From contig CAIKXE010000004.1 of assembly GCA_903831305.1 (NCBI GenBank), positions 83,524-147,523 of the forward strand: a stretch of DNA of 64,000 nt. The letters are read 5' to 3'. This document shows, in pieces, positions 7,777 through 43,377 of this stretch (the first letter of the stretch is position 1; every line of letters starts with the position of its first letter). Position numbers and translations under genes: made by a program. The DNA comes from an uncultured bacterium. Its GTDB lineage: Bacteria; Patescibacteriota; Minisyncoccia; Phycocordibacterales; GWA1-40-21. The notes under the pieces were generated by a model, which worked only from the letters and a program-made list of their open reading frames with translations, was not told where the DNA came from and did not search any database.

Positions 7777-7847
7777 ATTTTTTGTTTTATGCTAAGCTAC
7801 TATAAGAAGCCTATGGTGCGTGTCGGAGGCTTTTTTTTGTACCTTTC

Positions 7848-8012
7848 CAGAGTATAAATCTCTAAGCAATTGGATCGTTTGCGCGGTTTACGAATTTTTC
7901 CGAGAGGACGGCCTGGTCTACACCTTCGGGTGCTCTGCGAGACCTATCCTTTAAGAACTGTTTAACTTTTGGTATCTAATATTGAAAGTATTGCTTAGAG
8001 ATTTATGTTCTG
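7848..8012. repeat. 17-nt perfect inverted repeat (ataaatctctaagcaat / attgcttagagatttat) enclosing a ~120-nt GC-richer core with a cUUCGg loop
   Basis: seen directly in sequence; see findings. Confidence 0.5.
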
Positions 8013-14331: not shown

Positions 14332-15060
14332 TTATATTTTTTTATAAAAAGTCTTAAATATTTGTTTTTGGAATTCCGCAATCCTCTTACTCTCTATAGT
14401 CATACAAGTCTCAGAATTGTAATCAATGAAGGCTACTTTGTCCCCATAAATTATTTCTGTGACATTGTGCTCAAAAGGACCAAAATCCGGCGGTAATACT
14501 TTGGTAAAGCGGTCCAAACTCGGTCTCTTGTTCTTAGCTGTTTGAACATTGGTGATCACCTCGCGTTGTAGCCTTTTTTTATCACGCATTTTTTGATAAA
14601 TTCTCGGTACATATTTATCTTTTTTTTCCTGACCATTTTTGTTTGAACTGTAACGGTAAAAGGTGTCACCTTTTTTTAGACTCCTGACCACATCATCAAA
14701 TATTCTTTTAGTACCATCCTTACCCTCTAGGAATCTGATCTTGGGTCTCTTCTCACTGCTGGCATAGGCATCTTCCAAGTCTGGCAATATCTCAAAGAAA
14801 TCAATTTTTAAATCATCAAACAAGGTTTCCAGCCGGTTGGGTGGCTCAGCACCAAAGACCACGCTTTTCAGTTTTTGGGTTTTGGTCACCAGTTTTTTAT
14901 CCAGGAGGGCGGGGAGAGCTTTATAAATGAGGGGGCGGTGGATAGAAGTTTTCTCGGATATCTCGGAAATATTTGAAGTCCCCATCTCAAGTAGCGCCAA
15001 ATAGATAGCGCTTTCATTCTTGGTCAGCCCTATTTTCTCCAAAATTTTGTTTTTGTCCAT
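14332..15060 (-). CDS. TrmB-family transcriptional regulator (paralog 0)
   Basis: N-terminal wHTH LTKNESAIYLALLEMG; full-length similarity to the three regulators in the ABC-transporter locus. Confidence 0.7.
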   Translation of the reverse strand: MDKNKILEKIGLTKNESAIYLALLEMGTSNISEISEKTSIHRPLIYKALPALLDKKLVTKTQKLKSVVFGAEPPNRLETLFDDLKIDFFEILPDLEDAYASSEKRPKIRFLEGKDGTKRIFDDVVRSLKKGDTFYRYSSNKNGQEKKDKYVPRIYQKMRDKKRLQREVITNVQTAKNKRPSLDRFTKVLPPDFGPFEHNVTEIIYGDKVAFIDYNSETCMTIESKRIAEFQKQIFKTFYKKI

Positions 15061-15372
15061 TTTTTATCTGTTTTAGTTATTAAAATTGTAACTCAATTTT
15101 ACAAATATATTATCATAATCATTAAGAAAGTTTAAGTTTTTCAAGGATTTATCCATATTATTGTATTGATTTGACGTGTTTGTAATATATTGTTACATCT
15201 TTTATGAGTAGAATAGGCCAGAGATTAACGGTTTGCGGGTAACGCCCGTATTTACATTACAGTACCGCCTCCAAAATAGGTGATGGCGAAGTAATTTTAA
15301 TATTATATTGTTCAGATAAGAGCTCCTTGAGATTTGAATCTAGGTTTAGAAAGGAAAAAAGGAGAAGGGCCA

Positions 15373-28506: not shown

Positions 28507-28578
28507 GCCCTCGTAGTTCAATGGATAGAACAAAGCTCTTCTAAGGCTTTGATGTTGGTTCGATTCCAACCGAGGGCA
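28507..28578 (+). tRNA. tRNA-Arg (anticodon UCU)
   Basis: acceptor GCCCTCG/CGAGGGC, anticodon stem AAGCT/GGCTT loop CTTCTAA, T arm GTTGG-TTCGATT-CCAAC. Confidence 0.8.
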
Positions 28579-28719
28579 CAATAAAAAGTACTCTTTTTTA
28601 TTGTGCCCGAGAGCAGGCATGGGTATGCCTGCGTGTTGGAATCGAAGCCTGTTTGAGATTTTTTAGAATTTCCGAATGAATAAAAAATCCAAACACGGAT
28701 ACTGTTCTCGTAGAGAAAG

Positions 28720-28739
28720 ATATCCAACCGAGGGCACCA
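28720..28739 (+). repeat. direct repeat of the tRNA-Arg(UCU) 3' end (gatATCCAACCGAGGGCAcc)
   Basis: matches 28561-28579 (GATTCCAACCGAGGGCACA) 140 nt upstream. Confidence 0.5.
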
Positions 28740-28800
28740 GAATAAAAGTATCTATTGTCTACTTTTTGATAAGAACGGAAAAAAATGATATATTTATCCG

Positions 28801-29676
28801 GTGGATATTGTTCCCCAACTCATTGTAAATAGTCTCATTGCTGGATCACTCTATGCCTTGGTAGCTTTGGGTTTCAATTTTATTTATGGAGCAACCCGTT
28901 TTTTCAACTTGGCGCACGGGGCTATCGCCGTGGCGGGAGGCTATATAGTGTACTTCTTTACAAAAATGCTCGGCTGGTCAGCTATACCGTCCATCATTAT
29001 TGGTCTACTTGTTGCTGGGTTGTTAGGTTATTTATCTGAACGTTTTATCTACCGCCCCCTTCGAGCCCGTAAAAGCTCACACATGGTTCTTCTGGTAGCT
29101 TCCTTGGGTGTATTGACCGCCCTCCAAGCCATAATTGCTATGCTCTTTACTAGCCAGTTTCAGACCCTGGGCCAGATGGATAGTGTGAACCGAACTTTCA
29201 ATATCTTTGGTGGCGTGATCACGCAAATACAGCTGATTATGTTTATCTCTGTGGTGGTGGTGATGGTGGGCCTGGCCGTGATTTTGAAATTTACTTTTTT
29301 TGGCAAATCGGTTCGGGCTATCAGTGACGATGAAGAAGTGGCCAGGATGGTGGGGATAAACACTAATCAAGTAATCGGTATTGTTTTTTTTATTGGTTCA
29401 GCCTTGGCGGGTCTCTCCGGGATACTTTCGGGCTATGATACCGGACTGGAGCCCACTATGGGTATGAGCTTGCTTTTGAAAGGGGTTATTGCTTCTATTA
29501 TCGGCGGTATTGGCAATGTGTATGGGGGAGTGCTTGGGGCCTTCCTTCTAGGTTTTGTAGAAAATTTCGGCATCTGGAAAATTTCCGGTGAGTGGAAAGA
29601 TGCTATTGCCTTTGGTCTCCTCATCATTTTCCTCCTGCTCAGACCCAATGGTATTTTAGGTCAAAAGCGGTCATAG
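28801..29676 (+). CDS. livH: branched-chain amino acid ABC transporter permease (LivH-like)
   Basis: 8 TM, conserved permease loop; near AGGYIVYFF. Confidence 0.8.
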   Translation: MDIVPQLIVNSLIAGSLYALVALGFNFIYGATRFFNLAHGAIAVAGGYIVYFFTKMLGWSAIPSIIIGLLVAGLLGYLSERFIYRPLRARKSSHMVLLVASLGVLTALQAIIAMLFTSQFQTLGQMDSVNRTFNIFGGVITQIQLIMFISVVVVMVGLAVILKFTFFGKSVRAISDDEEVARMVGINTNQVIGIVFFIGSALAGLSGILSGYDTGLEPTMGMSLLLKGVIASIIGGIGNVYGGVLGAFLLGFVENFGIWKISGEWKDAIAFGLLIIFLLLRPNGILGQKRS

Positions 29677-29681
29677 TCTAG

Positions 29682-30494
29682 CTAATCTTTTAGTTGTTTA
29701 GAGTCCCAAGAGAGTTCAAAAATAGTTTTCATCATGTCATGTATGGCCTGATCCTCGATGATTACGCCAGTCTCATGATCCTTCTTGAAGTTAGTTATAG
29801 CTACTTTATTTGTTCCATATATTGTAATTTCTGAGGCGGAAGGAAATTTTCCCTTTTTTACAAATCGCATTTCTGGCCAAAACTTTTTATCCACATTACC
29901 ATAAAATATTTCTCTTGATTCTCTATCTTCTTTAGTATCTGGTAAAATAATGCGAGTGGTTATTCCGTTTTTGGTTTTTCTTTCTGTGTAGGATTTGAAT
30001 AAATCCTTATTGTCGGCATCAAGAAAGTTTGTAAACTCCTTACCGTTGGTGAAGTTTAACATTTCATATGGTTTCTGATTAGTGACCATATCGTCAAAGA
30101 TGTCAAAGAAGCCCTTTTTACCAGAATAATAAGTAATTTTTGCTTGGTCTTGGTTTGACGAGTAGATATTTTTTATATTTGGCAAGATTTCGGTTATCTC
30201 ACTAACAGATTCTTCTACTTGATGAAGTCTTGATTTAGTAAATTTTAAAACATTTTCCGGTTTTTCTATCTGGTAGTATATTTTATCCTTATTCATTATT
30301 TCATTGACGAGACCTTTTATGGATAGCGAGGTCAAAATATTATATGCGGTTGATCGCCGTATCCCTGCGTATTTGGCGATTCGGGAAGGGAAGGCTTCCC
30401 TCAGTTCCAGAACAGAAACGTATACCAGAGACTCTTTGTCAGTCAGGCCAGACTTCATTAGTTTTTTTATTAGCCCGATATTCTTTATTTCCAT
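29682..30494 (-). CDS. TrmB-family transcriptional regulator (paralog 1)
   Basis: wHTH LTDKESLVYVSVLELREAFPSRIAKYAGIRRSTAY; divergent to SBP gene. Confidence 0.7.
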   Translation of the reverse strand: MEIKNIGLIKKLMKSGLTDKESLVYVSVLELREAFPSRIAKYAGIRRSTAYNILTSLSIKGLVNEIMNKDKIYYQIEKPENVLKFTKSRLHQVEESVSEITEILPNIKNIYSSNQDQAKITYYSGKKGFFDIFDDMVTNQKPYEMLNFTNGKEFTNFLDADNKDLFKSYTERKTKNGITTRIILPDTKEDRESREIFYGNVDKKFWPEMRFVKKGKFPSASEITIYGTNKVAITNFKKDHETGVIIEDQAIHDMMKTIFELSWDSKQLKD

Positions 30495-30689
30495 AGTTTA
30501 ATAGTAACAGATGTGTGTAAACTGTCAATGTAAACCGACAGTCTCTGTATAATTCTACAATAGACTTCTATTTAGTCATATTTATAGTTTGGAGTGTCAA
30601 TCATTACACACATATTCTTAGTATGTGGTAGTCTTTTTGATAGAAGGTCTAGGTTATGACCTTCTATTTTAATCAATAATTTAAAAAAA

Positions 30690-31805
30690 ATGGAAAAAAT
30701 AAATAAGAAATGGTTAGTAAAAATTATTGTTTTGGTTTTAGTTATAATATTTGTCGGTTTAGCTTTTGGAATGACTAGGCCGGTTGCTAATAAATCAGTG
30801 AAAGTTGGGGTAATTTTACCCTTGACTGGGGCCGCCGCTGATTATGGGCAGGCCACAAAAAAGGGTATTATCTTGGCGGTGGCTAAGACTTTGAAGAATG
30901 ACAATATTAATCTGGAAGTTATATATGAAGATAGCCAGGCTGATCCAAAGTTAGCCGTTAGTGCTATGAAAAAATTGGTGAATATTGATAAAGTAAAATA
31001 TGTTATTGGCTTTACTAGCGGGGAAACTTTAGCTATTTGTTCTATCGCGGATACTAATAAGGTTATATTGCTTGGAACTGCCACCAGCCCTGATATCACG
31101 ACGAAGTGCGGGGATTATACTTTTAGGAACTCACCGTCTGATACTTATCAGGGTAAGGTTTTAGCAGACAAGGTTTTTGCTATGGGTTATAAAAATGTTG
31201 CTATTTTTTATATTAACAATGATTACGGAGTTGGTTTGAAAGATAAATTTATAAAGGATTTTGAGGGAACAATTACAAATGTGGAGTCACACAAGCCTAA
31301 TGATACGGACTTTAGAACTCAGCTGATGAAGATAAAAGCAAACAATCCCGAGGCAGTTGTTCTCATTTCCCATCTGGCCGAGGGATCAATAATCCTCAAA
31401 CAGCAGGTGGAGTTAGGGCTGGCCAAGCCTGTATTTTCTTCGGAGTCTTTGAAGGACTCCGCCGTATTCAAGCTTAGTAAGCTTTCATTAGAAAGATTAT
31501 ATATTAGCTTCATTAGCCAATACGAGGGTCCGGAATTTAAGGAGTACAAGGATAGTTATACAAAAGCTTATGGTTCGGAGTTTGGTATCTATTCAGATTA
31601 TCAGTATGATAATATTTTAACTATAGTTAATGCTCTAAAGATTTGTAAAGATGGAAGTGATATTGAGTGTGTAAAGAAAGAAATTTACAGAACTAATATA
31701 ATTGGTGCTACGGGCCGTATAAACTTTGACAGCAATGGTGATCGAGTTGATAAAGATTATTTTCTATATAAGGTACAGGATAATACTTTTGTTCCACTAG
31801 ATTAG
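30690..31805 (+). CDS. ABC transporter substrate-binding protein, Leu/Ile/Val-binding family (SBP-1)
   Basis: N-terminal TM anchor, VKVGVILPLTGAAADYGQ motif. Confidence 0.8.
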   Translation: MEKINKKWLVKIIVLVLVIIFVGLAFGMTRPVANKSVKVGVILPLTGAAADYGQATKKGIILAVAKTLKNDNINLEVIYEDSQADPKLAVSAMKKLVNIDKVKYVIGFTSGETLAICSIADTNKVILLGTATSPDITTKCGDYTFRNSPSDTYQGKVLADKVFAMGYKNVAIFYINNDYGVGLKDKFIKDFEGTITNVESHKPNDTDFRTQLMKIKANNPEAVVLISHLAEGSIILKQQVELGLAKPVFSSESLKDSAVFKLSKLSLERLYISFISQYEGPEFKEYKDSYTKAYGSEFGIYSDYQYDNILTIVNALKICKDGSDIECVKKEIYRTNIIGATGRINFDSNGDRVDKDYFLYKVQDNTFVPLD

Positions 31806-31815
31806 TCTTGCAACC

Positions 31816-32562
31816 TTAATCCTCCGTGGAGATATTCCACAAAATATTGAACAGGGCTAGGATGGTTTGGCTAAACTCGGGGCTCTCAATCACAAAGCCA
31901 AAATTTCCCCTTTCGGTAAAGATGATCGCTACCTTTTGCCCGATGACACAGATGGTATCTGGGATGAAGACCCCTTTAGGGGCATAGCGTATTTCCCGTA
32001 GCATTTCTGTGGCGCCACTGATAAGTGGTTCAGTGGGCTGATCCTCGCGCATACGGACATTTTTTACTTTGATCCTTTTGGCGATTCGGCGCCTGGCATA
32101 ATCCTTGAGGAAGTCATCACCGACGGTTTGCACCCGGGAAGCATTAGAGCTGACGTAATACATGGTTTTACTTCTGGTGGTCAGTGTTTCCTCAAAGATA
32201 TTTTGCATCCCTTTTTGCCCAAAATAATATTTCATCTTTGGTTTTTCTTGGTCCGGTGAGATCATAGCAGACAAAGCGGGGACTACTTGCTCAGCGTATT
32301 TTAAATTATTTTTAGCTTGGCGGATAAAGGCCGTAGGGGATTCTACTTTGTATTGCTTTTTCTTTTCTGTCAGCACCATGGTAATCAAGCCACGTCTGAT
32401 GAGCTCATCTAAGATAAGGTAACAAGTGGGCCTCTTTAGCCCGGATTTGGCCGCCACTTCCAGGACAGTAAAGGACACTAGCTCCAAGGCGGCCAGGTAT
32501 AGCCGGGCTTCCTTGTCACCGAGGCCTAATAGTTCTAATTGTTTCTCCTTTATCATTGCCAC
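31816..32562 (-). CDS. TrmB-family transcriptional regulator (paralog 2)
   Basis: wHTH GDKEARLYLAALELVSFTVLEVAAKSGLKRPTCY. Confidence 0.7.
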   Translation of the reverse strand: MAMIKEKQLELLGLGDKEARLYLAALELVSFTVLEVAAKSGLKRPTCYLILDELIRRGLITMVLTEKKKQYKVESPTAFIRQAKNNLKYAEQVVPALSAMISPDQEKPKMKYYFGQKGMQNIFEETLTTRSKTMYYVSSNASRVQTVGDDFLKDYARRRIAKRIKVKNVRMREDQPTEPLISGATEMLREIRYAPKGVFIPDTICVIGQKVAIIFTERGNFGFVIESPEFSQTILALFNILWNISTED

Positions 32563-32731
32563 CCTATTATAACAGAGCCAAGTATGTTGTCAAATTTATT
32601 GACATTTATCTACATACCTTAATATACGGCTATATGTAAGAATATTATGTAATATATAGTTTAAATTGTTTGACGTATTTTGGTCTTGTGATACAATAAT
32701 TCTGTTAGTTTATTAATTATCAATTAATCAT

Positions 32732-33856
32732 ATGAAAAAAATATACATATATTTAGGTTTAGTTGTTATTGTGCTTGCGGGGGCGGTTATGGTTTCTAGA
32801 AATCAAACCACACTTGGGCCGGTCAAGATCGGCGTTATCGGTCCAGTGACTGGTAGCTCCGCTGGGGTTTATTATGAGCCATTGAAAAAGGGGATTGATA
32901 TTGCTCTGGCGGGGATAAACAAGAGTGGTACTAAATTAGCGGTGGTGTATGAGGATGATCAGCTAGATGGTAAATTATCAGTTTCGGCCTATGCTAAATT
33001 AAAAGCAGAAGGTGTGCGGTACTTTATCCTAAACGGTAGTCCAGCGGCGGCCGCCGTCGCTCCACTGATCAAGGCTGATGGAAACGTGTCCATGGTGCCC
33101 TCAGCCCTCCTGACGGCTTACAAGGATGATAGCCCTCTGACTTGCCGTATTGCTCTGACCGCTGACAATTATGGTCCAGCTTTCACTGATTTGTTCTTAA
33201 ATAAATTAGATAAGAAGCAAATAGTCACCTTGGTTTCAAATACCGAGGGGGCGATGGCTATCTATAATGTATTCAAGGAAAAGTTTGAGGCCGCAGGCGG
33301 GCAGATAGTCCAGGCGGAAACCTTTGGCAAGGATGACATTGATTTCCGTACCCAGATTACTAAAATCAAAGCTAATAAAAAAGCCGAAGCGATTGTGGTT
33401 ATAAACTGGTCAAGCACTATTGTACCTATGCTTACTCAGATAAAAGAACTTGGCCTGACCTTACCGATCTTTGGTGACACGGGGACAATCAAGAATGCGG
33501 CTATCAAGGATTTGACTCTGGCTAACGGAATTACTTTCTTGGACTATTCTTTCACCACTGATGGTAACAATGTTTCAGGCATTGCTCAGAAATTTATCAG
33601 TGATTATGCTTCCTTAAATGGTGGAAGCAAGCCGAGTATCCAAGCCCTCCAAGGTCATGACTCTGTAAGTATCCTGGCTCATGCTCTTGCTCAGGCTGAT
33701 GCTAAGAACCCAACCAGTGTGGCAAACTATATTGTAAATAATATTAAGGATTATGAGCTGGCCGGTGGTAAATTCTCCTTCAACAGTACCTGTGAAGCTG
33801 ATAGAGATATTGCCGTCAGACAAGTGGTAAACGGGGAGATTGTAGATGTAAAATAA
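32732..33856 (+). CDS. ABC transporter substrate-binding protein, Leu/Ile/Val-binding family (SBP-2)
   Basis: VKIGVIGPVTGSSAGVYYE; paralog of SBP-1/3. Confidence 0.8.
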   Translation: MKKIYIYLGLVVIVLAGAVMVSRNQTTLGPVKIGVIGPVTGSSAGVYYEPLKKGIDIALAGINKSGTKLAVVYEDDQLDGKLSVSAYAKLKAEGVRYFILNGSPAAAAVAPLIKADGNVSMVPSALLTAYKDDSPLTCRIALTADNYGPAFTDLFLNKLDKKQIVTLVSNTEGAMAIYNVFKEKFEAAGGQIVQAETFGKDDIDFRTQITKIKANKKAEAIVVINWSSTIVPMLTQIKELGLTLPIFGDTGTIKNAAIKDLTLANGITFLDYSFTTDGNNVSGIAQKFISDYASLNGGSKPSIQALQGHDSVSILAHALAQADAKNPTSVANYIVNNIKDYELAGGKFSFNSTCEADRDIAVRQVVNGEIVDVK

Positions 33857-33878
33857 AGATTATTAATAATTAATCACC

Positions 33879-33908
33879 AAAATAGCCCTAAACCAGGGCT
33901 ATTTTGGT
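33879..33908 (+). terminator. hairpin aaaatagccct-aaacc-agggctatttt
   Basis: perfect 11-bp stem. Confidence 0.65.
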
Positions 33909-33922
33909 GTCAGAAAAAGTGC

Positions 33923-33951
33923 TTGACAAATAGTCCATACTATGCTAGTGT
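33923..33951 (+). promoter_or_regulatory. sigma70-like promoter TTGACA-17-TAGTGT for GC-rich two-gene island
   Basis: hexamers read directly; SD AGGGAG before ATG 34023. Confidence 0.45.
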
Positions 33952-34022
33952 TATAGGTAGATCGATCCACCGTAATTCGCGTCCCATATCGGGGTGCGAC
34001 GGGGATCAAGGGAGATATCGGG

Positions 34023-34394
34023 ATGAAGAAGATCATTGGTATGCTGGTGGCTGTCGCGGTCGTGGCGTTGTTTGCCACGGGGTGCGCGTCGCTCACTCGG
34101 GATCCGAACCGTGGGCGGGGCGTGGAGTATTCGGAGAAGATCCTCCGGCCGACGGGCGACGTCCCGAAGATCGGGACCGTGATCCACGTGATCGCGATTC
34201 TGAATCGGGAGGTGGAGTCTCAGGTCATCTGGACCGAGATGCCCACTGACTACGCCATGTTCCCGAAAGTTCGGGTCATGACGGTCAAGGGGTTTCGCGC
34301 CTGGTCGGAGGGTGTGGGTGACGAGAGAGACTCGTTGTGCATGGTCCAGTACGATAGTGAGACCAGCATACGCCTCATCCTCATGAAGGACTGA
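34023..34394 (+). CDS. lipoprotein (123 aa) in GC-rich island
   Basis: signal peptide plus lipobox LFATGC; GC3-rich codons. Confidence 0.5.
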   Translation: MKKIIGMLVAVAVVALFATGCASLTRDPNRGRGVEYSEKILRPTGDVPKIGTVIHVIAILNREVESQVIWTEMPTDYAMFPKVRVMTVKGFRAWSEGVGDERDSLCMVQYDSETSIRLILMKD

Positions 34395-34564
34395 CCACCC
34401 GAGTTTGTGGGTTAACTCTGACAACTCATATGGTCCTGAGGCGCCATTGTAAAAAGCCTCACTGTCTCACGATGTGTGTCGTGACTGATAAGTCCAAAAG
34501 GACGAAACAGAAAAGTTCTTTGAGAGGTAAGTAAGCGGGGTAAATCCCCAGAAAGAGAGAGACA

Positions 34565-35404
34565 ATGAATACGGAAACGAAGAATGGTCGGCCGGTGAAG
34601 GTTCATTTGGCCATGAGGGACGGTCCAGTTCCCAGGTCGATCAGGCAAGTTCTGCCGATCGTCGGGGATGAGGCCTCCCACACTTACGTGGAGGTCCAAG
34701 CCGAGGCAGACCTCGTCATCTTTGACGAGGTGCGGGAGATCGAACGGGGATACGACAAGGAGAAATCCTACGCGTTCCTGCAGATGCCCGGAGTGAAGGT
34801 TCCGCGTCTGCCGGATAACTGCGAGGTCATCAACCCCCTGCAGATCTTGCCGGGCTTGATCGGGTCCATCAGTAAGGCTCGTTTGAGACTTCCCCCGCCC
34901 GCCATGTCGGCCGTGGAAGAAGAGGAAGAGACGACTGTGTCTTTACTCCCCGACGCCCTGCGTATCCTCGTCATTGAGGATACGCCGCGGCACCAGGCGA
35001 GTGCTAAGCAAGGTCTGGCCGGACACCGACTCATGGTAGCCACGGGGTACGAGGAAGCGATGGAGGTTCTCGGCAACGAGAAGTTCGACGTCGTCCTCAC
35101 GGACCTGCAACTACCCATGTCCTCGCGCACGCTCGGTACCGAAGCGTTCAAGCTCGGTCAGCTGGTGCCTTATGGCCTCATGCTCATGATCGAGGCGGCG
35201 CACCAGGGGGCGAGACATGTGGCGGTCGTCACAGACATGAACCATCACGCGGACTGGCTATCGGCAGCATTCGATCACTTCCGCTACTCGGTGAAAATCG
35301 AGGGAGCGGTCGTGCAGATGATGCACGCGCCGATGAAGCGGGACGCGTCTGGTGAGTCCGTCAAGGACTGGGTCGCCGCCCTTGACCGGCTCCTGAAAGA
35401 GTAG
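34565..35404 (+). CDS. protein with C-terminal CheY-like receiver-type domain (279 aa), GC-rich island
   Basis: LRILVIEDT...DVVLTDLQLPM pattern resembles REC domain; no obvious output domain. Confidence 0.45.
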   Translation: MNTETKNGRPVKVHLAMRDGPVPRSIRQVLPIVGDEASHTYVEVQAEADLVIFDEVREIERGYDKEKSYAFLQMPGVKVPRLPDNCEVINPLQILPGLIGSISKARLRLPPPAMSAVEEEEETTVSLLPDALRILVIEDTPRHQASAKQGLAGHRLMVATGYEEAMEVLGNEKFDVVLTDLQLPMSSRTLGTEAFKLGQLVPYGLMLMIEAAHQGARHVAVVTDMNHHADWLSAAFDHFRYSVKIEGAVVQMMHAPMKRDASGESVKDWVAALDRLLKE

Positions 35405-35470
35405 CTCTTAACCTAAAGCGCGGATATAATCCGCCAAGTGACCTGACATGTTACAGACAACTGTCAACGG

Positions 35471-35505
35471 GCCCGGACTGCAACACGCAGTTCCGGGCCT
35501 TTAAA
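35471..35505 (+). terminator. hairpin ggcccggactgc...gcagttccgggcc plus T run
   Basis: read directly. Confidence 0.55.
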
Positions 35506-35582
35506 CTTGTCTGAATTTCAAAATAAGGTGTGGATTATAAATAAGCGGTCGCGTTCTTATATTCCACCCCTAAACAGGGTTT

Positions 35583-36482
35583 TTGTTTTGGAAAAATTTA
35601 AGGTATAATTTCTCCGTGGAATATTTAATACACCTTGCCATACTCTTTGCTATCTACGTGCCACTGGCGGTGTCACTAAATTTGGTGGTGGGGTATACTG
35701 GACTGCTCTCTGTCACTCACGCGGCCTTTTATGGTGTGGGGGCTTATGCCACTACTCTGCTTGTGGTAAATTTTGGTTGGGGCTTTATCCCGGCTTTGCT
35801 TGTGGCCATGATCCTCTCCGGCCTCCTGGCCACTCTCTTTGGCTTGATCCTCAGCCGTTTCCGAGATGATTATTATGCCTTGGTCTCTTTTGGTTTCAAC
35901 ATTATCGTTTACAGTATTTTATTAAACTGGGAGAGCTTGACCCGTGGCCCCCTAGGGATCCCTGGTATTCCTCGGCCAGAAATATTTGGTCTGACTTTTG
36001 ATTCAAATTTATCATTCTTGATTTTAGCCTTGGCTCTGGCTCTCACGGTCTACCTGGTTTCAGCGGGCATTGTAAAATCATCCCTTGGCCGAGTGCTCAA
36101 AGGGATAAGAGAAGATGAAAAGGTGCTCGCTATCTTTGGTTACAATACCGAGGTTTTCAAGCTGGTCATCTTTGGCCTGACCGCGATGATGGCGGGGCTC
36201 GCGGGTGGTCTCTTTGCTACTTATATTACTTTTATTGACCCTTCCACTTTTGGCCTGAATGAAAGTATTTTTATCCTGGCTATGATTATCCTGGGTGGTA
36301 TGGCTAATCTCCGGGGGTCCGTCATCGGCGCTCTGTTCCTAATCCTCCTGCCGGAAATTCTGCGTTTTGTGGGCTTCCCCTCAGACATCGCGGCCCAGAT
36401 GCGCCAAGTGGTGTATGGGGCTCTCTTGGTCTTGCTTATGTTATATCGTCCCCAAGGATTGCTAGGGGAGTATAAACTGTGA
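35583..36482 (+). CDS. livM: branched-chain amino acid ABC transporter permease (LivM-like)
   Basis: multi-TM permease; paralogous to LivH-like gene. Confidence 0.78.
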   Translation: MFWKNLRYNFSVEYLIHLAILFAIYVPLAVSLNLVVGYTGLLSVTHAAFYGVGAYATTLLVVNFGWGFIPALLVAMILSGLLATLFGLILSRFRDDYYALVSFGFNIIVYSILLNWESLTRGPLGIPGIPRPEIFGLTFDSNLSFLILALALALTVYLVSAGIVKSSLGRVLKGIREDEKVLAIFGYNTEVFKLVIFGLTAMMAGLAGGLFATYITFIDPSTFGLNESIFILAMIILGGMANLRGSVIGALFLILLPEILRFVGFPSDIAAQMRQVVYGALLVLLMLYRPQGLLGEYKL

Positions 36483-36526
36483 TATTCTTTAAATAGTAAT
36501 TTATTAATAATTCTTAAAAAAAACTC

Positions 36527-36697
36527 ATGAAAAAGTGGCTTTGGATTGCTCTGATTATCGTGGTGGTGGCTATTATCGGCGCGGGGATGAATAAGGGGAA
36601 GGATACTACAAATATCAAAGTAGGGGCTACCCTCTCTCTTACGGGCAGTTTAGCCTCAATTGGTAAATCAGAAATGATTGCTAGATTGGCAATTTAG
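36527..36697 (+). pseudogene. truncated substrate-binding protein remnant (56 codons: TM anchor + first beta-strand KVGATLSLTGSLASIG)
   Basis: aligns with N-termini of SBP-1/2/3 then stops. Confidence 0.5.
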
Positions 36698-36721
36698 TAA
36701 TTATGTTTGAATTTTATCAAG

Positions 36722-36752
36722 GCAAAAAATCCCTCCCAAACGGGGGATTTTT
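36722..36752 (+). terminator. hairpin aaaatccctccc-aaac-gggggatttt
   Basis: read directly. Confidence 0.55.
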
Positions 36753-36767
36753 TGCTATACTGTATAG

Positions 36768-37520
36768 GTGACTATATTGCGAACACAAAATATTCATAAA
36801 AACTTTGGTGGGGTGAAGGCGGTGGACGGAGTCTCTATTGCTTTCGAGCCGGGGAAAATCACGGGGTTGATAGGGCCGAATGGCTCCGGTAAGTCTACCC
36901 TGATAAACCTTTTGACCGGTATGACTGCCTTTGATAACGGCCTTATTTATATTGGGGAGCATACCCGGCTGGATCATATACACCCTTATGACTTGCCAGA
37001 CTTTGGCATCACCCGGACCTTTCAGGATATCCGCCTGTTTGAACAGATGCCGGTTTTAGATAATATCTTGATTGTGATTACTTCCCGGAATGTGCTCGGC
37101 GCCCTTTTTGAAAAGCATAAAAAGTATCATTTAGATATTGCGGAGAAGGTGCTCCGGCAAGTGGGCTTGTGGGAGAAGAGAGACTGTTTGGCTCATGATT
37201 TGTCATATGGGCAGAGAAAGCTTTTGGAGATTGCTCGGGTACTTGCCCTAAATGAAGATGGTGGTGAGGTGCTCCACACTATTTTATTTGACGAACCGTT
37301 TGCTGGCCTATTTCCGGAGATGATAAAGATCGTTTCAGAGACCCTGTGCCTCCTGCGGTCTCAAGGCAAGACGGTGGTACTGGTGGAGCATAATATGGAT
37401 ATTATCCGGGAATTATCTGATCACGTTATCGTTCTGGATAGTGGCCAGGTGATAGCCGAGGGGACACCGGCCCACGCCCTCTCTCAGGCGAGCGTCATCG
37501 AGGCGTATTTGGGAAAATAG
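36768..37520 (+). CDS. livG: branched-chain amino acid ABC transporter ATP-binding protein (LivG-like), GTG start
   Basis: Walker A GPNGSGKST, signature LSYGQRKLLEIA, Walker B ILFDEP. Confidence 0.85.
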   Translation: MTILRTQNIHKNFGGVKAVDGVSIAFEPGKITGLIGPNGSGKSTLINLLTGMTAFDNGLIYIGEHTRLDHIHPYDLPDFGITRTFQDIRLFEQMPVLDNILIVITSRNVLGALFEKHKKYHLDIAEKVLRQVGLWEKRDCLAHDLSYGQRKLLEIARVLALNEDGGEVLHTILFDEPFAGLFPEMIKIVSETLCLLRSQGKTVVLVEHNMDIIRELSDHVIVLDSGQVIAEGTPAHALSQASVIEAYLGK

Positions 37521-37521
37521 T

Positions 37522-38262
37522 TTATTTCTCCTCAGGGATCATCTCCCACATCACTTCAAATATTTGTTTTATGGCATCATGGATTTTTGAACTTTCAATT
37601 ATTATTCCCAGGCGGTCATCATAGTTTAAAATAGCCGTTTTATTTTTACCATACAAGAGTATCTCATTCTCCAGATTAAACTTTTTAGAATCCAAGGTCC
37701 GAGATTTGCGTAACTGCTCGCTATTTTTGAGAATATACGGTTTTAGCTCCTGGCTGTCTGGTAGGATAGCGCGGATCCAGATGTTTTTCTTTTGCCTTTC
37801 CGGAATATAATATTTTTCCTGAAAGGATTCACTACCAACTGAAGAGGAAGCGGAGAACCAGGATTGGATCTCTTGGTTTGGAGTAGAAAGTGTTTCTCGG
37901 TAGGCCTCCTTTATGCCATCTTCACCTTCAAAATACCGGACAGACGGTTTTTTATCAATCGCTGATCCCAGGGATAAAAGGCTGGCCATATTTTGTTCCA
38001 GTTCTTTTTTATTTTCATCCAGGATCGCTAGAATCACTTTAGGGCTCTGAGCATTATAATATTTCAAATTCCGCCTTTCTGATTGACTGACCAATCCCTT
38101 TTTTATCAAGTTTTCAAGCTCCATATAAGTAGTGGGCCTTTTTATGCCGGACTTTTGGGCAATGCGGGAAGCGGTGGTTTCTCCAAGCTCATAACTGGCT
38201 AGGTAAACTGAGGCCTCCTTAGGGGAGAGGCCAGCCTTAATCAAGGTGTCTAAATGGTTCAT
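37522..38262 (-). CDS. TrmB-family transcriptional regulator (paralog 3)
   Basis: wHTH LSPKEASVYLASYELGETTASRIAQKSGIKRPTTY. Confidence 0.7.
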   Translation of the reverse strand: MNHLDTLIKAGLSPKEASVYLASYELGETTASRIAQKSGIKRPTTYMELENLIKKGLVSQSERRNLKYYNAQSPKVILAILDENKKELEQNMASLLSLGSAIDKKPSVRYFEGEDGIKEAYRETLSTPNQEIQSWFSASSSVGSESFQEKYYIPERQKKNIWIRAILPDSQELKPYILKNSEQLRKSRTLDSKKFNLENEILLYGKNKTAILNYDDRLGIIIESSKIHDAIKQIFEVMWEMIPEEK

Positions 38263-38482
38263 AATTTATTTTAAATATTACTTTGTCAGTAAAATTGACA
38301 ACAGTGTAATAATAGTAATCTTCTATTAGTTTGTCAAGAATAATAAGGATATTTATTAACACGCTCATTTTCATAAAGTGTCAATTTGTATGACTATGTT
38401 GTTATATATTCTCTAGAGTGTATAATATATGGAGATATAAGGTTAATCCTTTTATTTTATTAGTAGTTAATTTTTAAAAAAT

Positions 38483-39607
38483 ATGGAACAAGCAAAAAAG
38501 AGTTGGTGGGTTGTGGGAGTTGTGATATTAATTGTTTTAATTATTATTGTGGTTATTTCTACTAAAAAACCCACAGAGACTGGGCCAATTAAGATTGGTT
38601 TTGTGGCCCCCCTTACTGGGGATGCTGGTGGTATAGGGCAGAGTATAAAGCAAGCGGCTGAGCTAGCGGTGTCTGAAATAAATATGGCCGGTGGTATCAA
38701 TGGGCAAATGGTTACCTTGTTATCAGAGGATGGTAAATGTGACGGTAAGGAGGCAGTAACGGCGGTGACCAAGCTTATCAATGTGGATAAAGTGGGGGTG
38801 ATAGTTGGTGGGGCTTGTTCCTCTGAAACGGTGGCTTCAGCTCCGATCGCGGAGAAGGCCAAGGTGGTGATGCTCTCACCTCTTTCTTCTAGTCCAGCTC
38901 TGACAACGGCAGGAGACTATATCTTCAGGGACTATCCGTCTGACTCCTTTCAGGGAGTAAAGGCGGCGGAATTTGCGGTGAACACCTTGAATGCTAAAAA
39001 GATTGCTATTCTGTCTTGTGTGGATGATTGGTGTCAGGGGGTGGCTCAGGTTTTCAAAGCTAAAGCTATTGCCTTGGGGGCGAGCCTGGTCAGTGAAGAA
39101 AAGTATGAGAAAAGTTCTACTGACCTAAAGACGCAGTTGACCAAGATAAAAGCGGCTAATCCAGACCTGGTATATTTTCTGGGTTATACAGATGGAACTG
39201 TTGTGGGTTTAAAGCAAGCCAAAGAACTAGGCTTGCAAGCTAAAATACTTGGTGGTGATGCGTGGAATGATCCTAAGATTGTGGCCAGTGTTGGTTTGGC
39301 TGCTGAGGGGATAGTCTATCTGGTCCCGACCTCGTTTAAGAATGCTTCATTTGAAACGGCGATGGTAAAAGTAAATGGTGGCAAGGAGATAACCATCGGT
39401 TCAAAGGAATCATATGATGCGGTGAAGATTCTGGCGCAGGTGATGCAGAAAGTCGGTACGGATAGTACCAAGGTAAAGAATGCTTTATACGAGGTCAAGA
39501 ATTATCAAGGAGTGTCTGGCAGTATTTCTTTCGATAAGAATGGAGATATTAGCAGTTCAAGTTATGATGTTAAAGTGATTAAGGGAGGTGTTGCAGTAAA
39601 CTACTAG
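38483..39607 (+). CDS. ABC transporter substrate-binding protein, Leu/Ile/Val-binding family (SBP-3)
   Basis: IKIGFVAPLTGDAGGIGQ; paralog of SBP-1/2. Confidence 0.8.
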   Translation: MEQAKKSWWVVGVVILIVLIIIVVISTKKPTETGPIKIGFVAPLTGDAGGIGQSIKQAAELAVSEINMAGGINGQMVTLLSEDGKCDGKEAVTAVTKLINVDKVGVIVGGACSSETVASAPIAEKAKVVMLSPLSSSPALTTAGDYIFRDYPSDSFQGVKAAEFAVNTLNAKKIAILSCVDDWCQGVAQVFKAKAIALGASLVSEEKYEKSSTDLKTQLTKIKAANPDLVYFLGYTDGTVVGLKQAKELGLQAKILGGDAWNDPKIVASVGLAAEGIVYLVPTSFKNASFETAMVKVNGGKEITIGSKESYDAVKILAQVMQKVGTDSTKVKNALYEVKNYQGVSGSISFDKNGDISSSSYDVKVIKGGVAVNY

Positions 39608-39633
39608 GATCTTAAGAAGAAATAAATAAAACA

Positions 39634-39663
39634 AAAACCCGCTTATTGTTGCGGGTTTTTGTT
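39634..39663 (+). terminator. hairpin aaaaacccgc-ttattgtt-gcgggttttt
   Basis: read directly. Confidence 0.65.
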
Positions 39664-39686
39664 TATAGGTTAATATATAAAGACAC

Positions 39687-40361
39687 ATGGAACCAGAAAA
39701 AATGGAGATAATTGAAAAACCGCAATTCACTAGAAAAGTATTTTGGGACAACCCTTATCTAACAGAATTGAAAGCTAAGATAACTAGCGTGGAGGATAAT
39801 AATATTACACTGAATCAAACTATCTTTTATGCTTTTTCTGGTGGTCAGGAAAGTGACGAAGGCACAATTGGAGGTAATCATGTTCTGCAAGCGAAAAAGG
39901 AAGGGAAAAATATTATTTACACCATAGAAAGTGGTAAGTGTTATAATGTGGGTGATGAGGTAACGATAAGTATTGATTGGGCGAGACGGTATGAGCTGAT
40001 GAAACTACATTTTGCTGCGGAAATTGTATTGGAATTGATGTACAAGAAATTTCCCGGCATCGAGAAACTGGGAGCTCACATTGCTTTTAATAAAGCGAGG
40101 ATAGATTTTAAATATGATGGAAGTCTGGCAGATATTTTGTCCGAAATAGAAAAGGTAGCCAATGAAATCATTAGCAATAAAGTAGTAGTTAAGAGTGATT
40201 TTAGTGATATTGAAAATGAACGAAGATACTGGGAGATTACAGGTTTTGCTCAGGTGCCCTGTGGAGGAACTCATATTAAAAATACCGGTGAGATTGGACG
40301 TGTTGAATTAAAACGAAAGACAGCTGGTAAAGGAAAAGAGAGAATTGAAATCAATCTTTAA
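39687..40361 (+). CDS. AlaX-like tRNA editing domain protein (Ala/Thr-tRNA synthetase second additional domain)
   Basis: conserved CGGTH motif (VPCGGTHIKNTGEIG) and H..H region characteristic of AlaRS-type editing domains. Confidence 0.55.
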   Translation: MEPEKMEIIEKPQFTRKVFWDNPYLTELKAKITSVEDNNITLNQTIFYAFSGGQESDEGTIGGNHVLQAKKEGKNIIYTIESGKCYNVGDEVTISIDWARRYELMKLHFAAEIVLELMYKKFPGIEKLGAHIAFNKARIDFKYDGSLADILSEIEKVANEIISNKVVVKSDFSDIENERRYWEITGFAQVPCGGTHIKNTGEIGRVELKRKTAGKGKERIEINL

Positions 40362-40402
40362 AAGATGATTTTAGCGGGGAAATACCGTATAATGAAGAGA
40401 CG

Positions 40403-41134
40403 ATGAAAAAAGAAGGGAAAGAACAACTCTTAAAACTAGAAAATATCAGTGTGAACTTTGGCGGGGTGCAAGCCTTGAAGGGTGTTTCTCTGTCATTTGA
40501 TGAGGGGGAGATAGTGGCCTTGATGGGTCCAAACGGGGCTGGCAAATCTACTGTGCTAAAGGCGATCTTTGGCCTAGTGGAGACGGCTGGTGGTAAGGTG
40601 CTGTGGCATGAGCAGGAGATTCGGCCTGTACCGCATGAGGTGGTCAAGCTCGGTATCTCTTTTGTGCCCCAGGGCCGGCGGGTATTTAAATATTTGACCG
40701 TGAAGGAAAATCTGGAGCTAGGCGGAGTCACAATAAAGAATAAGAATATTTTGAAGGAAAGGCTGGAAGAAGTGCTGGTCCTGTTCCCGGCTTTGCGGGA
40801 AAAGCTTTCCGCCAAGACCGGGGCGCTGTCCGGTGGACAACAGCAGATGGTGGCGATAGCCAGGGGACTCATCACTGATCCCAAGATATTGCTTTTAGAT
40901 GAGCCGTCACTTGGGCTATCACCTAAGATTGTGGGCGAAGTCTTTCAAAAAATTAAGGAAATAAATGAAAAGAGAAAGATGACTATAGTGGTGGTGGAGC
41001 ATAATATTAAGTCGCTCTTGCCCATCACCGACCGGGCCTATATTTTAGATAAAGGGGTGCTGGTTCATACTGGTGTGGGTACAGAAATCCTAAAAGATAA
41101 TATTTTAGAGAAGGTGTTTTTGGCCAAAATCTAA
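40403..41134 (+). CDS. livF: branched-chain amino acid ABC transporter ATP-binding protein (LivF-like)
   Basis: Walker A GPNGAGKST, signature LSGGQQQMVAIA, Walker B LLLDEPS. Confidence 0.85.
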   Translation: MKKEGKEQLLKLENISVNFGGVQALKGVSLSFDEGEIVALMGPNGAGKSTVLKAIFGLVETAGGKVLWHEQEIRPVPHEVVKLGISFVPQGRRVFKYLTVKENLELGGVTIKNKNILKERLEEVLVLFPALREKLSAKTGALSGGQQQMVAIARGLITDPKILLLDEPSLGLSPKIVGEVFQKIKEINEKRKMTIVVVEHNIKSLLPITDRAYILDKGVLVHTGVGTEILKDNILEKVFLAKI

Positions 41135-41143
41135 TTGCTATTT

Positions 41144-41219
41144 TGGTGGGCGGTATAGGACTTGAACCTATGACCCTTCGCGTGTAAAGCGAGCGCTCTA
41201 CCAACTGAGCTAACCGCCC
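41144..41219 (-). tRNA. tRNA-Val (anticodon UAC), CCA encoded
   Basis: acceptor GGGCGGT/ACCGCCC, anticodon loop TTTACAC, T arm TAGGTTCAAGTCCTA. Confidence 0.8.
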
Positions 41220-42696: not shown

Positions 42697-43377
42697 GTGA
42701 TGGGAAAGCGTGGCCCAAAACCAAAATATTTAGTTTCAACTGTTTGGCGATTTGGCCTCGCTTACGCGGTTGGTTTATTGGCCTCTGATGGATGCCTTTC
42801 TTGTGATGGCAGGCATATTGATTTAACTTCGATAGACATAGAGCAATTAGAAAATTTTAACAAGGCACTAGGATTAAATTTTGAAATCGGGTTCAAGGAT
42901 AGAAATTCTAAAAGTAATAATACTGCATACAGGGTTCAAATTTCAAGTGTTTTGTTCTATGAGTTTCTAGAAGGAATCGGTTTTACAAAAAAGAAGTCCC
43001 TGACAATAAAGGAGATAAATTTACCAGATAAGTATTTTGCAGATTTTCTTAGAGGACTATTTGATGGGGATGGGTGTAGCTATTCCTATTGGGACAAGAG
43101 ATGGAGGTCTAGTTTTATGTTTTATGTTGGATTTTGTTCTGGAAGCACTGCCTTTGTTAGTTGGTTACAAGAAAAAATTAAAAAACAAGTAAAGGTAAAA
43201 GGACATATTACTAAATCAAAAAGAAAAAACTTTTATTATCAGTTAAAGTATTCAAAATATGAAGCTGTAAAACTGGTCGGTTTTTTATATAAAAATGGTA
43301 ATGTTATTAAATTAAATAGAAAGTACTTGAAAATAATGAAAACTTTAGGTACTATGAGGAAGTTAGGTGAGATTTAG
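42697..43377 (+). CDS. free-standing double-motif LAGLIDADG homing endonuclease
   Basis: two LAGLIDADG motifs (LLASDGCLS and GLFDGDGCS) ~100 aa apart; ends 1 nt before tRNA-Leu. Confidence 0.75.
   Translation: MMGKRGPKPKYLVSTVWRFGLAYAVGLLASDGCLSCDGRHIDLTSIDIEQLENFNKALGLNFEIGFKDRNSKSNNTAYRVQISSVLFYEFLEGIGFTKKKSLTIKEINLPDKYFADFLRGLFDGDGCSYSYWDKRWRSSFMFYVGFCSGSTAFVSWLQEKIKKQVKVKGHITKSKRKNFYYQLKYSKYEAVKLVGFLYKNGNVIKLNRKYLKIMKTLGTMRKLGEI

Follow-up and report, generated by a model that had tools for sequence, protein, structure and literature searches.

Binding-protein cassettes with TrmB-type regulators around a single Liv-type ABC transporter in Paceibacteria

Why should the genes of one ABC transporter of the Liv type be interleaved with several solute-binding proteins (SBPs), and why should these be accompanied by regulators of their own? 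The question is raised by a stretch of 64,000 nucleotides from an uncultured bacterium of the Minisyncoccia (assembly GCA_903831305.1, contig CAIKXE010000004.1, positions 83,524 to 147,523), hereafter the window. In it, the genes livH, livM, livG and livF lie on the plus strand between positions 28,801 and 41,134. They share this locus with three complete SBP genes, each preceded by a divergent gene for a TrmB-family regulator, and with a 56-codon SBP fragment, a GC-rich island of two genes and an AlaX-like gene. This gene order, with the TrmB genes on the minus strand, had been drawn in a first-pass annotation of the window and was borne out, coordinates included, by the listing of open reading frames (ORFs) and by Pfam and NCBIfam domain scans. 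The same locus, island included, occurs in the independent metagenome assemblies L001, L002 and L004 (L-numbers denote related loci or stretches compared with the window), and thus it is not an assembly artefact. The answer proposed here, in which we place moderate confidence, is that one translocator would be served by several membrane-anchored SBPs with different pockets, and that each accessory SBP would form a self-contained cassette with a divergent, TrmBL2-like winged-helix regulator.

The transporter itself has the composition expected of the hydrophobic amino acid uptake transporter (HAAT) family. Two genes encode permeases with a BPD_transp_2 domain, and their scores against the NCBIfam LivH-, LivM-, UrtB- and UrtC-like models all lie below the equivalog cut-offs. 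Both ATPases carry ABC_tran, and the LivG-specific tail BCA_ABC_TP_C is found in the protein encoded at 36768-37520. The three complete SBPs are Peripla_BP_6 proteins of cluster B (E 9e-41 to 9e-59). They align end to end, with 30-38% identity to SBP1, so their homology is as clear as had been supposed from their appearance; the same is true of the regulators (26-31% identity). Their lengths of 371-374 residues, their N-terminal anchors and the divergent arrangement of each regulator/SBP pair were likewise confirmed. At the N-terminus, a hydrophobic segment without a lipobox cysteine is followed by a VKVG/VKIG/IKIG...P(L/V)TG motif. Anchored SBPs of this kind fit an envelope that has no periplasm.

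The pockets of these proteins differ. Among solved structures, amino-acid binders (3TD9, 4GNR, 4N0Q and LivJ/K) come nearest, SBP3 being matched to 3TD9 with an E value of 2e-40, whereas the PDB match of SBP2 is the poorest (E 7e-13). When the five ligand contacts of LivK are compared, SBP3 and SBP1 keep them, the latter if a histidine is accepted at position 202, while the divergent SBP2 keeps two in an alignment-dependent comparison (Table 1). Across related loci, four or five of these contacts are retained in just 67 of 304 SBPs, and the SBPs fall into 101 clusters at an identity of at least 40%. Since so few keep the LivK contacts, the array probably captures a range of solutes, of which only some would be standard alpha-amino acids. 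Amino-acid SBPs are expressed in metatranscriptomes of Paceibacteria enrichments (PMC10936435).

How far this arrangement extends was seen in a LivM scan of GTDB representative genomes, which gave 80 loci with a LivM of 62-90% identity; with L007, L009 and the window, these make 83 non-redundant loci. They were annotated by phmmer and jackhmmer against the window proteins, and SBP genes were counted in views of ±10 kb. Altogether, 306 full SBP genes and 125 TrmB genes were counted, with 103 divergent TrmB/SBP pairs among them and at least one TrmB in 45 of the 83 loci. Consequently, the pairing that the first-pass annotation took to be unusual in a bacterium is common across Paceibacteria. The number of copies is far from fixed, unlike the uniform arrangement that would have spoken against the first-pass reading. 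It ranges from 0 to 11 SBP genes per view, with a plain S-H-M-G-F operon at one extreme and, for instance, at least nine cassettes within 20 kb in L007. Some relatives do have a simple operon: where livH to livF are fully in view (41 loci), HMGF is uninterrupted in 10, and the rest carry one to seven inserted SBP genes (59 after livM, 25 after livG and 6 after livH). The TrmB genes follow the SBPs closely, as 103 of the 125 (82%) are divergent neighbours of one. Homologs of TrmB3 are mostly from Candidatus Paceibacterota or Parcubacteria (Taylor-, Wolfe-, Kaiser-, Harrison- and Nomurabacteria), and so are the named relatives of LivM. To judge from these relatives, the window comes from an ultra-small bacterium of the candidate phyla radiation, one of the Paceibacteria. 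Many of the metagenome-assembled GTDB representatives with this locus (L016-L092) are titled 'uncultured Candidatus Saccharibacteria' or 'Gammaproteobacteria'; these record titles look like submitter mislabelling because their LivM is 62-90% identical to that of named Paceibacteria.

The regulators had been set against the background of archaeal TrmB proteins, which control sugar transport, and this background does not suit them well. The winged helix-turn-helix (wHTH) domain PF01978 is present in all four TrmB proteins of the window (42-49 bits; cut-off 25.6), the fourth being an orphan paralog that had already been placed at 14.3 kb and has no adjoining SBP. The tyrosine Y46 of the recognition helix, equivalent to Y50 of Pfu TrmB (PMC4158304), is invariant in alignment A3. 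By contrast, the sugar-contacting C-subdomain PF11495 was not matched by Pfam in the window proteins, where only the N-terminal PF01978 was detected. Moreover, the proteins have 246-270 residues versus 338 for TrmB, and they reach 22-25 bits against NCBIfam TrmB equivalogs with cut-offs of 500-650. A profile of 42 family members aligns with TrmBL2 over its full length (residues 9-243 versus 12-261 of the chain, E 5e-12), whereas against TrmB it aligns only over the N-terminal part (residues 9-149). Structure prediction agrees: the AlphaFold2 (AF2) model of TrmB3 (pLDDT 91) has TrmBL2 as its best Foldseek match (E 7e-14), followed by the TrmB structures 3QPH and 2F5T, and its C-domain fits onto the N-subdomain of the domain with which TrmB binds sugar (2F5T). 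To judge from these models, the window regulators are proteins of TrmBL2 architecture, with a wHTH, a coiled coil and a phospholipase D (PLD)-like C-domain in about 260 residues, and without the sugar-contacting subdomain. Mean identity within the family is lower in the C-domain (19%) than in the wHTH (28%), a divergence that is compatible with the sensing of different effectors.

Palindromes that could serve as operators accompany these regulator genes. A motif search of the three divergent intergenic regions found a TGTC-N9/10-GACA palindrome in each. In the 64-kb window, TGTC-N9-GACA occurs twice and TGTC-N10-GACA once, and all three lie in the TrmB/SBP spacers. The pattern was derived from those spacers, which makes its presence there circular, while its absence elsewhere in the window is not. 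The sole TGTC-N10-GACA match is the putative TrmB1 operator, TGTCAATGTAAACCGACA, which is kept with its spacer in L009 although the TrmB orthologs are merely 43% identical; it is a clade-specific motif in cluster 30. The putative TrmB2 operator, TTGTCAAATTTATTGACA, is conserved in L018, L007, L022 and L047. Upstream of trmB3 lies a perfect palindrome, TTGTCAGTAAAATTGACAA, and a second, imperfect site, GTGTCAATTTGTATGACTA, abuts the −35 box of the SBP3 promoter.

The same pattern is enriched well beyond the window, being present in 30 of the 103 cassette spacers when 0.88 are expected and no more than four were seen over 200 shuffles. It is centred 36-40 nt before the trmB ATG, where it covers the −35 hexamer of near-consensus promoters. 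When TrmBs were clustered by sequence, other clades had other palindromes in the same place (ATTCG..CGAAT, CTCTCC-N4-GGAGAG, ATCAG..CTGAT and TGACTAA..TTAGTCA); in full, the conserved clade palindromes read ATTCGgcgaaaagCGAAT, CTCTCC-N4-GGAGAG, ATCAGaattgCTGAT, TGACTAAaaaTTAGTCA and TTTGTTCG...GTGACAAA. Many spacers, of 64-120 bp, hold a single palindrome, between both promoters. This co-variation of operator type with regulator clade is good evidence, as far as comparison of sequences goes, that the regulators bind their sites specifically, as dimers, and regulate themselves. That TrmB also controls the SBP promoter is suggested, less firmly, by the divergent layout, the short spacers with one palindrome and the second site at the SBP3 −35 box. 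A recurrent box of the GGCTATAAATA / TATAAAGGC type is also found in the middle of many TrmB/SBP spacers (cluster-28/30 cassettes) and upstream of other genes as well, for instance in the window at 32640-32655, in L018 at 4550-4570 and in upstream regions of L007; it could be an element that typically accompanies promoters in these genomes. As for other forms of control, a permissive Rfam scan gave no riboswitch, T-box or leader RNA upstream of the SBP, AlaX or liv genes, its chance-level leader matches being at the SBP3 terminator alone.

Taken together, these features suggest a mechanism in several parts. The regulator presumably binds, as a dimer, the clade-specific palindrome that covers the −35 box of the trmB promoter. 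It would thereby regulate itself and determine how the SBP next to it is expressed, and the translocator genes would be transcribed from promoters of their own. All of the SBPs would dock on this LivHM pair. Old and diverse cassettes would have been inserted after livM, livG or livH, or at the flanks of the locus, and would have been lost or re-assorted across Paceibacteria, so that cassette turnover would retune the solutes captured by a genome-reduced cell.

Several observations weigh against this explanation. First, the main palindromes of the window are 96-190 nt upstream of the SBP start codons and well upstream of the predicted SBP promoters, and thus they could serve autoregulation only, with no direct control of the SBP. 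Second, the proximal half-site coincides with a consensus −35 sequence, TTGACA, so that part of the signal of TGTCA-class palindromes could come from back-to-back promoters. Third, about 200 of the 306 SBP genes have no adjacent TrmB. Fourth, the distance matrices of TrmBs and SBPs do correlate (r = 0.66, Mantel p = 0.001), in keeping with cassettes that behave as units, but for no more than 46 of 88 cassettes do the three nearest SBPs include the one paired with the nearest TrmB; re-assortment of partners in about half of the cases weakens a strict logic in which the sensor matches the ligand. Fifth, in 45 of 89 junctions of related loci, trmB and the convergent gene upstream of it have stops no more than 30 bp apart and lack an intervening terminator. 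In the window, too, these stops nearly abut (Table 1), so that read-through from liv or SBP genes would run antisense across trmB, and such read-through may matter as much as operator binding. The claim of the first-pass annotation that each SBP has its own terminator holds for SBP2 and SBP3, whereas no hairpin follows the stop of SBP1, which is 10 bp from the convergent trmB2 stop. Finally, by analogy with TrmBL2, their closest solved relative, these proteins could be non-specific chromatin proteins, as TrmBL2 is one that has no known effector.

Some of these points would fit regulators that only regulate themselves, or that act at a distance. The SBPs would then be constitutive or expressed by read-through of the liv genes, and adjacency would not matter to the regulation of the SBP. 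Indeed, 40-120 nt separate the SBP promoters of the window from the main palindromes, the 3′ ends of trmB abut upstream genes without terminators and many SBPs do without a TrmB. Nevertheless, this reading leaves aside the predominance of divergent TrmB/SBP neighbours, the compact spacers with one palindrome between both promoters and the second site next to the SBP3 −35 box, and it does not account for the conservation of a control region behind which the SBP body has been swapped (see below). It is considered unlikely.

The kinship with TrmBL2 leads to another alternative, in which the TrmB-like proteins would be generic nucleoid or silencing proteins that travel with SBPs as a two-gene exchange unit and damp newly acquired DNA. 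In its favour, TrmBL2 is the best match in both sequence and fold, over the full length, and the sugar-binding subdomain is missing. In addition, regulator and SBP partners are re-assorted, and distant members of the family (30-41% identity) are located in unrelated contexts, for which reason they were rejected as SBP partners. Two such members that are not beside SBPs, in L010 and L014, also carry a palindrome of this kind just upstream. A coating protein, however, would not need clade-specific palindromes fixed over its own −35 box and kept with their spacers between orthologs of 43% identity, nor sites that are confined to the cassette spacers in the window. This alternative seems quite unlikely.

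It could also be asked whether the anchored Peripla_BP_6 proteins all take part in transport, or whether some of them act at the cell surface as receptors in signalling or in contact with a host, perhaps in connection with the receiver-like protein of the GC-rich island (gene R). The number of SBP families, most of them without the LivK contacts, and the recurrence of R inside Liv/SBP loci (the window, L007, L036, L050, L092 and L095) would agree with this idea. Yet in most genomes the SBP genes are placed between permease and ATPase genes, the Pfam and NCBIfam scans show no histidine kinase or output domain in the locus, and look-ups begun from R put one of four copies in a Liv locus. Such a role is improbable, and an obligate link between R and Liv was rejected on the same look-ups.

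The remaining question is how the cassettes came to be where they are. The first-pass annotation proposed modular duplication and diversification. The modular part stands, as cassettes are grouped around one LivHMGF set, but the duplication was neither recent nor local: over the 103 cassettes, paralogs within a genome average 22% identity for TrmB and 23% for SBP, with maxima of 49% and 41%. Closer relatives are found elsewhere. TrmB1 has orthologs of 40-45% identity in L009, L093 and L036 (43-45% in several genomes), and TrmB2 has orthologs of 76% in L018 and 67% in L007. TrmB3 and SBP3 are co-inherited, with identities of 74% and 67% in L009 and of 68% and 66% in L007. The low identity within genomes, together with orthologs in other genomes, argues that cassette variation reflects the gain, loss and re-assortment of old families. 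A recent tandem duplication in this genome, to which the repeated gene pairs in one orientation at one locus might point, is already contradicted by paralogs of 24-38% identity, by the closer orthologs elsewhere and by the lack of flanking direct repeats, and is highly improbable.

Two events in the history of this copy of the locus can be read in some detail. The first concerns the 56-codon ORF downstream of livM, which had been taken for the scar of a further SBP copy. It matches the N-termini of SBPs, and its best matches, L016/10953 (50% over 52 aa) and L018/10927 (44% over 48 aa), both directly follow livM in these closest relatives. Judging by this, it is what is left of the common 'M-S-G' SBP, whose gene comes after livM in relatives. 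The second concerns SBP2. In L018 and L007, the SBPs paired with TrmB2 orthologs share 72% identity, yet their identity to SBP2 of the window is no higher than 24-27%. Conservation with L018 nevertheless runs through the trmB2 operator, a GGCTATA box, the SBP promoter, the 5′ untranslated region and the first ~50 nt (~17 codons) of the SBP coding sequence, beyond which similarity collapses. Thus, the SBP body behind TrmB2 has evidently been replaced behind an intact control and signal-anchor module, with a junction inside the region that encodes the signal anchor. The 56-codon ORF, too, breaks off near the position of this junction, just past the LTG motif.

As for the means of exchange, no cassette-flanking direct or inverted repeats and no att-like sites were found, and the Pfam and NCBIfam scans gave no integrase or transposase domain in the locus. 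For these reasons, integron-like or transposon-borne cassettes were rejected as a description of the locus. A stronger version of the explanation may be offered tentatively, and with clearly less confidence. In it, the locus would be a hypervariable 'binding-protein array' on a single translocator, with dozens of ancient cassettes that carry TrmBL2-like regulators and private operators and are exchanged between genomes, SBP bodies that are swapped at the signal anchor and a C-domain that would be a new small-molecule sensor. If true, this would be a dedicated system that retunes the capture of nutrients from hosts in organisms unable to make their own building blocks.

Table 1. Features of the locus, of related elements in the window and of their copies elsewhere. 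LivK positions are S79, T102, Y150, Y202 and E226, in this order.
Feature	Position	Strand	Properties
TrmB4, orphan paralog	14332-15060	-	No adjoining SBP; palindrome TTGTAACTCAATTTTACAA at 15086-15104
tRNA-Arg	28507-28579		One boundary of the locus
Promoter-like element upstream of livH	28766-28794		TTGATA-17-TATATT
livH-type permease	28801-29676	+	291 aa; BPD_transp_2 (PF02653) E 2e-43; NCBIfam LivH/UrtB-like
TrmB1, TrmBL2-like wHTH regulator	29682-30494	-	270 aa; Pfam TrmB E 1e-12; convergent with livH, stops 29676/29682, 5 bp apart
Putative TrmB1 operator	30523-30540		Palindrome over −35 box of trmB1 promoter (TTGACA-16-TACTAT, minus strand)
SBP1, membrane-anchored, cluster B (HAAT)	30690-31805	+	371 aa; Peripla_BP_6 E 3e-45; S, S, Y, H, E at the LivK positions (5/5 if H202 is accepted)
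TrmB2	31816-32562	-	246-248 aa; Pfam TrmB E 9e-11; convergent with SBP1, stops 31805/31816, 10 bp apart
Putative TrmB2 operator	32587-32605		Palindrome over −35 box of trmB2 promoter (TTGACA-16-TATAAT, 12/12 matches)
SBP2 promoter	32670		TTGACG-16-TACAAT
SBP2, divergent SBP	32732-33856	+	374 aa; Peripla_BP_6 E 9e-41; S, L, G, W, T at the LivK positions (2/5, alignment-dependent)
Bidirectional terminator-like hairpin after SBP2	33875-33909		16-bp stem; left edge of island
Island gene L, lipoprotein-like	34023-34394	+	123 aa; lipobox LFATGC; GC 0.60, GC3 0.82
5′ hairpin and type III hammerhead ribozyme motif	34438-34511	+	Rfam RF00008 32.9 bits, E 7e-4 (gathering score 48.5)
Island gene R, tandem pseudo-receiver and receiver	34565-35404	+	279 aa; GC 0.60, GC3 0.76
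livM-type permease	35583-36482	+	288-299 aa; BPD_transp_2 (PF02653) E 7e-47
56-codon SBP stub	36527-36697	+	Signal anchor and IKVG..LTG motif, as in SBP N-termini
Terminator-like hairpin after 56-codon ORF	36730-36746		
livG-type ATPase	36768-37520	+	250 aa; ABC_tran and BCA_ABC_TP_C
TrmB3	37522-38262	-	246 aa; Pfam TrmB E 8e-13; convergent with livG, stops 37520/37522 abut (1 bp)
Perfect palindrome upstream of trmB3	38283-38301		Centre 30 nt from trmB3 ATG
Second, imperfect site	38378-38396		Abuts −35 box of SBP3 promoter (TTGTTA-16-TATAAT at 38399)
SBP3, most LivJ/K-like of the three	38483-39607	+	374 aa; Peripla_BP_6 E 9e-59; S, S, W, Y, D at the LivK positions (5/5); C53-C78 pair kept
Terminator-like hairpin after SBP3	39629-39664		14-bp stem, then T run
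AlaXM-like trans-editing protein	39687-40361	+	224 aa; Pfam tRNA_SAD; NCBIfam AlaXM NF040865 164 bits, full length (cut-off 300)
livF-type ATPase	40403-41134	+	243 aa; ABC_tran E 7e-34
tRNA-Val	41144-41219		Other boundary of the locus
R family copies	L007 1086-1967 and 18527-19069; L009 3752-4612; L036 19919-20719; L050 6605-7402; L092 13368-14168; L095 8001-8861; L097 8001-8819; L098 8001-8870		
Hammerhead copies	L018 6375-6448; L095 7907-7979; L102 335-402 and 1290-1362		In L095 between small ORF and R; in L102 either side of R homolog
Hammerhead copies	L100 4838-4910; L104 260-332; L109 932-1004	-	Weak copy in L062

The GC-rich island between SBP2 and livM (~33.95-35.5 kb) had been called foreign. 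It is certainly odd in composition, with 60% GC versus 41% in the window and a GC content at third codon positions (GC3) of 0.76-0.82 versus 0.34-0.53 in its neighbours, and it has sharp edges and promoter-like and terminator-like elements of its own. Gene L gave no Pfam or NCBIfam match; it has a homolog in L018, and L095 has an analogous ORF of 118 aa. The protein of gene R scores 25.8 bits against Pfam Response_reg, below the cut-off of 30.2. Nevertheless, the receiver pocket is complete (residues D139, D180, T223 and K267 are invariant in 47 sequences), and the AF2 model (pLDDT 91) has its best fold matches in the linker and receiver of RcsC, in ShkA and in PleD. Among 86 homologs of R, all those with a taxon name are from Paceibacteria, and a recent transfer from outside the phylum was accordingly rejected. 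The copies, which are 38-60% identical to the window protein, are GC-rich in all nine genomes examined (GC 0.48-0.60, GC3 0.55-0.76). In eight of the nine, their GC3 is far above that of the neighbours (0.25-0.50), even between housekeeping genes in L097 and L098; in L096, a genome of 52% GC, the composition of R equals that of its neighbours. At 38-60% identity, recent transfer cannot explain all of the GC-rich copies. To judge from these comparisons, the island is compositionally odd but not foreign, and both of its gene families are specific to Paceibacteria and rich in GC in all hosts examined. One idea for the GC-richness of R is a throttling of a regulator by rare codons. Finally, the island found no support as a phage element, as the single hammerhead/hairpin pattern tried gave nothing in the viral collection.

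Between L and R lies a candidate hammerhead ribozyme. A second motif of this kind follows the L homolog in L018, and both fall below the gathering score in the permissive Rfam scan (32.9 and 35.4 bits). Six base pairs in the stems distinguish the two copies, all of them through compensatory changes. With a covariance model derived from this pair, R1, eight further copies were found in other genomes; a match in L107 was judged from the alignment to be a false positive. In the model-fitted alignment A9 of 10 sequences, 98.9% of the cells are paired and 17 of 19 pairs show compensatory change, a value reached by none of 500 shuffles. The canonical core CUGAUGA is present in eight of nine credible copies. 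The window copy reads CUGAUAA and may be impaired by this G8-to-A change. An extra conserved 5′ hairpin, with the loop CCAUUGUAAA, is also found in the copies.

Apart from this lineage, L009 is the only one of the 83 loci with an AlaX-like gene between SBP3 and livF. The gene product keeps the CxxxH zinc motif (CGGTH), while HxxxE (HFAAE) replaces the canonical HxxxH, also in the L009 copy (7248-7925). There is no evidence of a functional link beyond the location of the gene downstream of the SBP3 terminator. The other genes of the window include those for tmRNA, SmpB, L19, PolA and pilM. At the left boundary of the locus, the 3′ end of tRNA-Arg(TCT), TCCAACCGAGGGCAC (28565-28579), recurs 158 nt downstream at 28723-28737, about 60 nt upstream of livH, and looks like an att-type footprint of integration or excision at a tRNA gene. 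A LAGLIDADG-like ORF of 226 aa (42697-43377) lies between rplS (L19) and tRNA-Leu, in the same position in L001, L003 and L005.

The bacteria of the candidate phyla radiation (CPR), or Patescibacteria, account for a large share of bacterial diversity and are devoid of most biosynthetic pathways. For these organisms, the locus provides a concrete architecture that extends across a lineage: one importer with a variable set of SBPs, each of which is able to carry its own regulator. It also yields some 35 clades of TrmB, for several of which operators are predicted, roughly 100 families of SBPs whose pockets diverge and a candidate hammerhead module in CPR genomes that is missed by standard Rfam thresholds. 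Among the papers listed by a literature search, none linked either TrmB or hammerhead ribozymes with CPR, Patescibacteria or Parcubacteria, and none of those examined on Parcubacteria and branched-chain transporters dealt with such cassettes. From the genomes compared, the system is apparently an undescribed, lineage-wide variant built from known kinds of parts.

Each of these parts has a counterpart in a known system. TrmBL2 of P. furiosus (PF0496) and Thermococcus kodakarensis (TK0471) is of the same length class and domain architecture as the regulators described here. As an abundant chromatin protein, it binds to coding and non-coding DNA alike and has no defined operator, whereas the present proteins have clade-specific palindromes at their own promoters and a specific neighbouring gene. 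Archaeal TrmB, in turn, uses a palindrome at the malE promoter to repress an ABC operon that depends on an SBP, as reviewed in PMC4158304. The trehalose/maltose operon of Thermococcus litoralis and Pyrococcus furiosus thus shares with the cassettes a PF01978 regulator beside an ABC SBP gene and a palindromic site at the promoter (PMC4158304). In contrast, the hosts are here CPR bacteria, the regulators are short (246-270 aa) and without a PF11495 match, the SBPs are of the amino-acid or HAAT type instead of the sugar type, and a locus may hold many paralogous cassettes, each with its own operator type. The novelty is therefore in the HAAT-type partners, the CPR hosts and the multi-cassette layout, as the logic of a TrmB protein on an SBP operon is already familiar; a family best known from sugar regulation in archaea is extended to amino-acid-type transporters in bacteria. 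Other divergent pairs of regulator and target, such as those of the LysR type, are likewise built around a short shared stretch of control sequence, with the operator placed over the promoter of the regulator gene and a single regulator for each target gene. They differ in the protein family, and in that the cassettes run antisense within a transporter operon, often with abutting convergent stops.

The ribozyme motif resembles the bacterial type III hammerheads of Rfam RF00008 that lie between cistrons, with the same stems I-III and loops, the CUGAUGA...GAAA core in most copies and covariation. It is set apart by scores below the gathering score, by the extra 5′ hairpin, by its tie to a Paceibacteria-specific pair of GC-rich genes and by the G8-to-A change of the window copy. 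The closest counterpart of the whole locus is the LivJ/LivK-LivHMGF system of Escherichia coli, and with it the HAAT importers (TC 3.A.1.4) in general. Both have two BPD_transp_2 permeases, two ATPases, cluster-B SBPs and more than one SBP per translocator, and SBP3 shares the ligand contacts and the disulfide pair of LivK. In the Paceibacteria, however, the SBPs are anchored in the membrane by their N-termini instead of being periplasmic, and their pockets are mostly not LivJ/K-like. Moreover, up to seven SBP genes can be found inside one operon, and an accessory SBP can bring its own regulator with it.

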